DNA of 62,967 bases, filler included, from Platydemus manokwari (taxonomy: Eukaryota), in assembly GCA_037951405.1 (NCBI GenBank). It is 5 parts of 5 records of this genome, joined end to end, with 100 filler letters (N's around TTAATTAATTAA, not from the genome) between each part and the next. Parts side by side here need not be neighbours in the genome. Positions count along the whole stretch, not along the records: positions 1 to 13,779 come from JBBMOY011624738.1; 4 more parts are not named here. One strand, 5' to 3'. How positions within the stretch are numbered: the first letter of the stretch is position 1; each line of letters begins with the position of its first letter. The translations under genes and the position numbers were made by a program. Shown one piece after another: positions 1,411 to 2,518 of the stretch. Under the pieces are notes generated by a model. It had not been told where the DNA came from, made no database searches, and saw only the letters and a list, made by a program, of their open reading frames with translations.

Positions 1411-2127
1411 GTGATGACGATAAATATAGATAGAATAAATATAGATGTGAGGTGACCGTATAAGACTTACTTGGAAGTCTCATATATTTTCTGTTATTTT
1501 TACATTTGCATTTCCTTTTTTTGGGAAAGGTAAAATTATAGCTAATAGTATGAGTTATGAAACAAGAAAGCTATCATAGTCTTCCCTTTGTTAAGTAATT
1601 CTGCTTTTTCGGTAAAAAATTTATTAATTAATTGTACGTATTGTACATGTATTTGTTCCTTATTGTTTTTGTTATCATGCTTCGTTACTTTATTTTTTTA
1701 ATTCTTTTAATGCAAGACTACAACTGAAGCGATAATTTCCACATTAGTTTTGTTTTGTTTTACTCTATAATATAAGGTGCTAGTTACTGTAGTTACTTGT
1801 AGTAATTGATTTTGTCATGTGCCATTAACATTTGAAGATGGCATTGATGATATCTTTTATACTTTTGTAAATTATATCTGGTGTATTGATCATTCCTTTT
1901 ATGGTATTTGCTGGCATGGATTTCTTAAGTATTGATGTTTTGTTGGATTATTGTCTTGTAGTATGAAATGTGAAGTATTAACTTCTTTATTTATCATAAC
2001 TCTAATTAAGTTATAACGACTCGGCTCATTTTCTAAGTATATGTATAGTTTATTATATTTTATTTCAATCCCGGTTATGTAAAGTTTTAACTGGGTGGTT
2101 ACCTTTTTATAGTTATGTTGGGATAAT

Positions 2128-2400
2128 ATGGAGCGTCTTGTGCTCTATTCGGACAGCGAGAGCGAAGACGAGGATGAGAAAATCCCATATTCAGTTAAAA
2201 ATTATAGCGAATGGAGACAGCAACAACAGCTGTCTCACCCCGAGTTTAAAAGACCCAAAACACCTCCTAAAACACCTCCAAAACAGGTCCCAAGACAGAA
2301 ACCTGAAAGACCCGGCACGCCAATAATAAAGCCCGCATTAATAATAAAACCAGGGGAGAATTGGTCCACCCAAGACTGGAGCGTGGATTTAGACGCCTGA
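2128..2400 (+). CDS. 90-aa LTR-encoded disordered protein (acidic N-terminus, Pro/Lys-rich middle, Trp-acidic C-terminus), function unknown
   Basis: Intact ATG-to-TGA ORF, GC-richer than its surroundings, with protein-like composition. It starts 12 nt inside the solo LTR. AATAAA follows at 2490-2495. Confidence 0.55.
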   Translation: MERLVLYSDSESEDEDEKIPYSVKNYSEWRQQQQLSHPEFKRPKTPPKTPPKQVPRQKPERPGTPIIKPALIIKPGENWSTQDWSVDLDA

Positions 2401-2518
2401 TGTCAGTGGAGACTCCCGTCTACGATCCAGAAAAGGCCAGAAAAAGCAAAACCCAAATCCAATCCAAATTCCAATCCAATCCAAATCCCAATAAACTGTT
2501 TATTAGTTGAACTTTTTT

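Follow-up and report, generated by a model that had tools for sequence, protein, structure and literature searches.

The DNA analysed here (the window) is a 62,967-nt stretch from Platydemus manokwari, and at 2116-3433 it contains a solo long terminal repeat (LTR) belonging to a high-copy family. This LTR is best explained as carrying a selected accessory gene in its U3 region, which would encode a small, disordered nuclear protein, i.e., a motif-based adaptor or decoy; we assign this reading as a whole a probability of roughly 0.55. Retrotransposon annotation treats U3 as non-coding and domain-based pipelines would miss such a gene. In a literature search biased toward open-access sources and without Repbase reports, no protein gene located wholly inside a retrotransposon U3 was found. 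If selected, the gene extends the layout of sag and nef to an invertebrate LTR family, and a tiny product composed of motifs would offer a direct test of how an element manipulates the host nuclear machinery. The product could also reveal the binding partners of the Tyr-Ser/acidic motif in Usb1 and PIP30, a motif that has been little studied.

The LTR and its copies

The features of the LTR and its immediate surroundings are the following:

2112..2115, plus strand: left target-site duplication, GTTA, read directly from the sequence
2116-3433, plus strand: solo LTR of 1318 nt from a high-copy family; TG..CA ends, 7-nt terminal inverted repeats
2128..2400, plus strand: 90-codon open reading frame (ORF) in putative U3; stop codon at 2398-2400, strong Kozak context
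2400..2510, plus strand: 36-codon ORF, the ATG of which overlaps the stop codon of the 90-codon ORF (TGATG, 2398-2402)
2490..2495, plus strand: AATAAA followed by a T-rich tract, a possible but weak poly(A) signal for the ORF
2496..2930, plus strand: U3 spacer, AT-rich (18% GC), with tandem repeats
2941..3012, plus strand: core promoter with TATATAA at 2978, TCACTC (Inr-like) at 3007 and two kB-like sites (2941 and 2990)
3013..3433, plus strand: putative R/U5, with AATAAA at 3317 and 3366
3434..3437, plus strand: right target-site duplication, GTTA, read directly from the sequence
3434..4099, minus strand: decayed Ty3-like reverse-transcriptase remnant of an older element, interrupted by the LTR insertion

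The LTR begins with TGTTGGG at 2116 and ends with CCCAACA at 3433. The initial annotation had described a solo LTR flanked by a target-site duplication at this location, which is borne out, except that the duplication is 4 nt long (GTTA) and not 5. A 4-nt duplication is compatible with Ty3/gypsy elements (Metaviridae) and not diagnostic of them. Taken alone, the end signature is weak because the AT-rich window harbors 17 comparable TG..CA pairs with a 7-nt inverted repeat, a 4-nt duplication and a spacing of 0.2-3 kb, the 2116-3433 pair included. With 16 other such pairs present, inverted repeats plus duplication were rejected as insufficient to serve as sole proof of an LTR.

Evidence on copies was obtained from one public run (referred to as X1), the contigs of which are short and of a kind not recorded; the assembly may itself have been built from this run. 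The contigs were mapped onto positions 1900-3700 and their depth was summed; this depth is not a copy number, as the mapping tool itself warns, and its peaks are inflated by overlapping contigs. The accompanying tables of changes are partly displayed, with changes near contig ends filtered out. The summed depth is 7-11 in the left flank and 21-31 in the right flank beyond 3485, and it steps up at both LTR edges, reaching about 400-27,000 across most of the LTR. At 2116, 12 contigs exit into mutually unlike flanks (agreement 0.49). Two contigs agree with the flanks and with the first or last 26-28 bases of the LTR, with zero differences. These observations show a dispersed multi-copy family with sharp shared boundaries and roughly hundreds of copies or more; the depth jump at both edges and the 12 unlike flanks settle the question, raised at the outset, of whether the element is single-copy. 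A second copy was not found within the 62,967-nt window, nor were relatives of the LTR found in JGI metagenomes or IMG/VR.

The U3-R-U5 order of the LTR is based on pattern matches, i.e., TATATAA, the Inr-like sequence and the AATAAA hexamers at 3317 and 3366 (two of eight in the LTR). The TATA/Inr spacing is canonical on the plus strand and an equally good minus-strand pair is absent, and therefore the ORF, which lies upstream of the TATA box at 2978, would occupy the extreme 5' end of U3. The reverse orientation was rejected on this geometry, which falls short of proof without a primer-binding site or polypurine tract (PPT). The sites at 2941 and 2990, located on either side of the TATA box, are ones that we take to be kB-like. 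Depth reaches its LTR maximum over the core promoter (21,800-27,300 at 2937-3058, peak 27,268), which may be common to LTR families without the ORF. The RNA folds of four LTR parts were not clearly beyond those of shuffled sequences. As a separate observation, one low-depth contig (depth 11.5) joins 2402 to 2977, i.e., it represents a copy without the U3 spacer, in which the end of the ORF is found beside the TATA box.

The remnant at 3434..4099 was identified from a phmmer match to PDB entry 4ol8_A (E=0.018), its PDB matches being Ty3 chains only; it has no Pfam match. The Ty3-like signal belongs to this target element alone and is unrelated to the parent of the inserted LTR. An open-frame scan of the flanks agrees with the earlier description of the surrounding transposon frames as full of stops.

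The 90-codon frame and its predicted product

The ATG at 2128 is located 12 nt inside the LTR edge, with A at -3 and G at +4. An intact frame of 90 residues in this position, upstream of the TATA box, had been noted initially, and it is present as described. The length of the frame can be compared with that expected by chance: an ATG ORF of at least 90 codons occurred in 91 of 2000 shuffles of the whole LTR, in 154 of 2000 shuffles of the GC-rich block 2116-2495, in 20 of 2000 shuffles of 2116-2400 and in 229 of 2000 block-wise shuffles. The length is marginal because the block is 47% GC vs 26% in the rest of the LTR, and since 90 codons are reached in 20-229 of 2000 shuffles, length alone is weak evidence. 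The GC3 of the ORF is 0.46 vs 0.12-0.34 in eight other ORFs of the window. The GC-rich block extends past the frame to about 2495, into the 36-codon ORF, which is probably not common to all copies; one subfamily departs from the window sequence at 2406. Termination-reinitiation uses a UGGGA-type motif that lies upstream of an overlapping stop and start. Such reinitiation into the 36-codon ORF is not supported, the sole TGGGA in the LTR being at 2119 with none near 2398.

The contigs of run X1 allow the frame to be compared among copies. Depth over the ORF is 1,251-19,782 vs 24-54 over the non-coding segment 2632-2753 of the spacer, which is near single-copy depth; the spacer of the window copy has few close relatives, while its ORF has many. 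All six indel rows listed for the ORF (at least 1%) appear frame-neutral, i.e., +3, +6 and two -1/+1 pairs, of which the latter share one depth value and were taken as one contig. Outside the ORF, 10 of 11 rows are not multiples of three (among the best 12 of 58 indel rows), or 5 of 7 from the same best 12 of 58 when rows are grouped by shared depth. The ORF contigs (8 of 241) contain 76 substitutions and 3 gap letters, with seven of the eight gap-free, vs 52 substitutions and 18 gap letters in the five contigs listed for R/U5 (Fisher P=0.03 by record), at a similar homopolymer content (37/273 nt in the ORF, 35/316 nt in R/U5).

A subfamily of three contigs shows five differences within the N-terminal motif (2131-2157), all of which are at third positions and silent (P=0.0016; 0.009 allowing for six cells). 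In the C-terminal motif, four of six listed changes are synonymous vs 1.9 expected (P=0.07), and no change is listed in the stop codon. When substitutions are pooled over the ORF, 7 of 20 listed rows are synonymous vs 5.4 expected, which is not significant (P=0.27). Two rows at 2192 would be stops if taken singly; they vanish if phased with neighbours of equal depth, a phasing that we infer. The frame-neutral indels, gap-poor contigs and silent third-position changes of X1 speak for retention of the ORF, and the pooled synonymous test does not. From the contigs of this single run, the frame and its terminal motifs appear to be kept among diverged copies, and the ORF is probably coding and selected.

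Searches for relatives of the ORF product were blank in all protein sets. In Pfam no homologue was found, the only match being Bflower at E=0.43. A match to the INCENP IN-box (E=0.025, below the cut-off, in one of five fragments) was taken as compositional; it illustrates how easily acidic tracts match. In a set of 5.8 billion proteins no homologue was seen among 5 candidates of near length and 142 longer ones, and an exact look-up was also blank. No homologue was found in PDB, PHROGs, JGI metagenomes or IMG/VR, and a feature-based Atlas search returned a blank that is uninformative. Within the window, tblastn gave one weak low-complexity match just 3' of the stop codon (E=0.04).

These data also bear on another account, in which a chance ORF resides in a GC-rich, A-rich U3 segment and the blocks shared among copies act as control elements in DNA or RNA, such as the att site and enhancer sites. 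The length reached in 1-11% of shuffles, the non-significant pooled test, the absence of a homologue in any set searched and the overlap of the first depth peak with the att site are all as this account would have it. Frame-neutral indels, gap-poor diverged contigs and changes confined to third positions are, however, unexpected of control DNA; in addition, there is no Rfam match, and neither end of the ORF has a strong RNA fold (z -1.9 and -0.7). We therefore consider a chance ORF unlikely.

If the frame is coding, as we prefer, the product is divided into four parts:

2128..2178, plus strand: L-V-x-Y plus Ser/acidic N-terminal tract, containing SDSE and CK2-type sites
2203..2229, plus strand: short helix predicted for residues 26-33, containing Tyr and Trp; depth has its second peak here (about 10,000)
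2245..2345, plus strand: linker rich in Pro and Lys, which contains FKRP and, encoded by a 12-nt tandem repeat, two copies of TPPK; shared less than any other part of the ORF
2359..2397, plus strand: C-terminal Trp/acidic motif, with the highest depth of the ORF (11,000-19,800)

The motifs quoted in the initial annotation (FKRP, KRPK, two TPPK and WSTQDWSVDLD) are all found in the translated sequence. The product has a predicted mass of 10.5 kDa, a GRAVY of -1.28 and no membrane segment, and a single-sequence structure model consists of coil and one helix (residues 26-33; pTM 0.15), i.e., the protein is predicted to be disordered. At the N-terminus the depth is about 12,000 at 2122-2145 and about 5,000-5,800 over the acidic tract; this first peak overlaps the end of the LTR, which is conserved for integration anyway. 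The L-V-x-Y-Ser/acidic pattern, defined post hoc, was reproduced in 2 of 20000 residue shuffles, so the motif singled out initially is unlikely to arise by residue shuffling. At the C-terminus, W-x-x-x-D-W (also defined post hoc) was found in 83 of 20000 shuffles, and the Asp that precedes the second Trp (codon 83) is variable, differing in about half of the depth.

The linker presents a different picture. Its depth falls to a valley of 1,251-1,701 at the TPPK repeat, with FKRP on the slope of the valley at 2,915, vs peaks of 10,000-19,800 elsewhere in the ORF. FKRP is found in a predicted disordered region, and FxxP occurs in 2831 of 20000 residue shuffles (14%); the corresponding numbers are 3272 of 20000 for a basic tetrapeptide and 550 of 20000 for two S/T-P-x-K/R sites. 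The initial emphasis on PP4 and CDK motifs was not sustained, as FxxP is reached by chance at this rate, the TPPK pair originates from one 12-nt repeat and both motifs reside in the low-depth valley.

Three analogies had been drawn initially, and they match the published descriptions, as far as the excerpts available of these sources extend. PIP30 (also named FAM192A) binds PA28-gamma via its C-terminus, in a region that is phosphorylated by CK2 and contains a conserved Tyr and two SDSE sequences (PMC6048556). The N-terminus of Usb1 contains a Y-polyS-D/E motif and a Pro-rich centre, and the motif is dispensable for yeast growth (PMC5591277). FxxP is the docking motif of PP4R3, which is frequent and often unused (PMC7776573). 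What Usb1 and PIP30 share with the ORF product is a conserved Tyr, a Ser/acidic tract of CK2 type and a disordered region, a likeness at the level of motifs without alignment support. The motif of PIP30 is C-terminal (PMC6048556, in excerpt), whereas that of the ORF product is N-terminal. A literature search on the LVxY motif brought up nothing of relevance.

The product shares its two-part plan with the N-terminal region of Usb1, which is 46-103 residues long and has Tyr-Ser-acidic residues in the first 20 positions and a Pro-rich centre (PMC5591277, in part). This would be consistent with capture from a nuclear gene of the host, e.g., of a disordered Usb1-like N-terminus that has been retained as a dominant decoy. 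Neither the whole ORF nor its parts gave a match to Usb1 in Pfam or PDB, and the 2H phosphodiesterase domain of Usb1 is absent. The GC3 of the ORF is also well above that of host ORFs in the window, and the weak INCENP match is a reminder of how little an acidic tract may signify. Capture thus seems quite improbable; it is an account of origin, and as such it is compatible with a selected U3 accessory gene.

Proposed expression and role, and known counterparts

Only 12 nt of the LTR precede the ATG, and the ORF is located about 850 nt upstream of the TATA box of the LTR. It is therefore likely that the protein is made from the 3' LTR of full-length elements. No TATA match is found in the 300 nt before the ATG of the window copy. 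The 12 LTR nucleotides before the ATG contain no AG, and any splice acceptor must therefore be found outside the LTR. MMTV sag and HIV nef are made from spliced or internally promoted RNA that enters the 3' LTR. By the same token, in a full-length element RNA would enter from upstream and the U3 of the 3' LTR would be transcribed, such that the Kozak ATG would be available on an RNA that is spliced or starts internally. Translation would start at this ATG, and the AATAAA at 2490 may mark the end of the RNA. In solo and 5' LTRs, the window copy included, the ORF would remain silent in the absence of transcription from a flanking promoter; that solo copies are silent is likely from the layout. 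A full-length element, a PPT or a splice acceptor was not seen in the data examined.

The proposal of an LTR family with an ORF therefore holds in part, i.e., the family is multi-copy and the frame is apparently kept, but expression from solo LTRs does not fit an ORF about 850 nt upstream of the promoter. Provided that the ORF is coding and selected, it would be expressed from 3' LTRs rather than from solo LTRs with high probability.

The position of the ORF at the LTR edge also invites comparison with nef, which runs through the PPT into U3. The frame could be the 3' end of a longer gene (a pol tail, an env-like gene or an ORF3) that crosses the PPT into U3, in which case the 90-residue product would not exist on its own. 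The four codons before the ATG are also open, so that 94 codons free of stops run from the very edge of the LTR, and the lack of an AG, which moves a splice acceptor outside the LTR, would suit such a gene. Four consecutive sense codons are, however, common by chance, a strong Kozak ATG is found immediately before the motif, and the Usb1 version of this motif is located within the first 20 residues (PMC5591277, in part). Less weight is carried by the lack of a longer relative among the 142 candidates. Altogether, a longer gene is improbable.

For a U3 gene that begins at its own ATG, three working parts are predicted: an N-terminus with the CK2-type Tyr-Ser/acidic motif, the helix containing Tyr and Trp, and a C-terminus with the Trp-acidic motif. 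The basic, Pro-rich linker that connects them is variable and may function in nuclear import. The likeliest role would be to engage a nuclear factor of RNA processing, turnover or silencing in a way that favours the element. Given expression from 3' LTRs, such a nuclear adaptor role is somewhat favoured, while any one named partner is improbable; PA28-gamma and PP4R3 are candidates by analogy. A bolder version, which is possible but doubtful, is that of an invertebrate LTR retrotransposon family with a retrovirus-style gene at the very start of U3, the 90-residue product of which, free of homology, would mimic short linear motifs of host nuclear proteins to hijack a nuclear RNA-processing or proteasome-activator partner and thereby shield the element. 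If true, hundreds of LTR copies would harbor the gene, and a host promoter could switch on any one of them.

In its strong form, the suggestion of the initial annotation is that solo LTRs spread an expressed, cell-cycle-phosphorylated modulator, which would engage PP4 via FKRP and PA28-gamma via the acidic motif. FKRP does fit FxxP and resembles FKKP ligands of PP4R3 (PMC7776573, in excerpt), a virus targeting PP4:SMEK1 is on record (PMC12994818, in excerpt) and SDSE is present, as in PIP30. Solo LTRs do carry the ORF, but they offer no promoter 5' of it, the LTR promoter being 850 nt downstream, and the window copy has no TATA match in the upstream 300 nt. Moreover, FxxP is seen in 14% of shuffles and is frequent and often non-functional (PMC7776573, in part), FKRP and TPPK reside in the least shared part of the ORF, and the PIP30 site is C-terminal and requires a region of 54 residues (PMC6048556, in part). 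This suggestion is very improbable.

Among known systems, the working mode of a 3'-LTR-expressed accessory gene would be closest to that of LTR-encoded accessory genes such as MMTV sag, while in size and predicted location the product resembles MDG1 sORF1. Like the proposed gene at 2128-2400, MMTV sag is a protein gene within an LTR, is kept open in most copies and is carried by solo LTRs; Sag differs in being a type II membrane superantigen of a mammalian betaretrovirus (PMC11998498, in excerpt). The ORF product has 90 residues, is predicted to be disordered and has no membrane segment and no sequence match to Sag. In Drosophila, MDG1 elements harbor sORF1, which is similarly a short accessory frame (about 100 codons) and yields a nuclear product from a short polyadenylated RNA with its own poly(A) site; sORF1 is found 3' of the promoter of the 5' LTR, before gag, and is predicted to form a helix-turn-helix (10.1101/2025.03.14.642691, in excerpt). 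In contrast, the ORF considered here is located inside U3, upstream of the promoter, and is predicted to be disordered.

Additional ORFs of plant elements (Grande gene23, RIRE2 and Retand; PMC7264820) and the ORF3s of rotifer elements (PMC5408684, in part) are family-wide and have no database match; some are nuclear and a regulatory role has been proposed. These plant and rotifer frames differ in that they belong to the interior of the element, where most are located 3' of pol and before the 3' LTR, and are therefore lost from solo LTRs. Extra ORFs are also found in the interior of planarian LTR elements (PMC6431247, in excerpt). Xenopus xretpos/1A11, considered as a precedent for an ORF in an LTR, was set aside, being unconfirmed by the available part of PMC4585706.

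Other features of the window

Runs of N around a 12-nt palindromic spacer are found at 13780-13879, 25533-25632, 39996-40095 and 51458-51557; they are artefacts, and these four joins explain the top repeat families of the window as artefacts. A broken ORF at 8096-8782 (plus strand) has a zinc-finger-like start and a weak phospholipase A2-like match (PF08398, E=0.015, below the cut-off). This ORF presumably resembles genes of Polintons or adintoviruses. At 18531-19022 (minus strand) there is an intron-less ORF of the Tctex-1 family (E=3e-21), the nearest relatives of which are 70% and 51% identical among the candidates scored, which suggests a host lineage that has been poorly sampled. An open frame of 422 codons at 38611-39876 (minus strand) contains a RhoGAP domain (E=2.6e-6). 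Finally, an Arg/Ser-rich open frame of 198 codons at 53874-54467 (plus strand), which has no Pfam match, is probably an exon of an SR-related nuclear protein.
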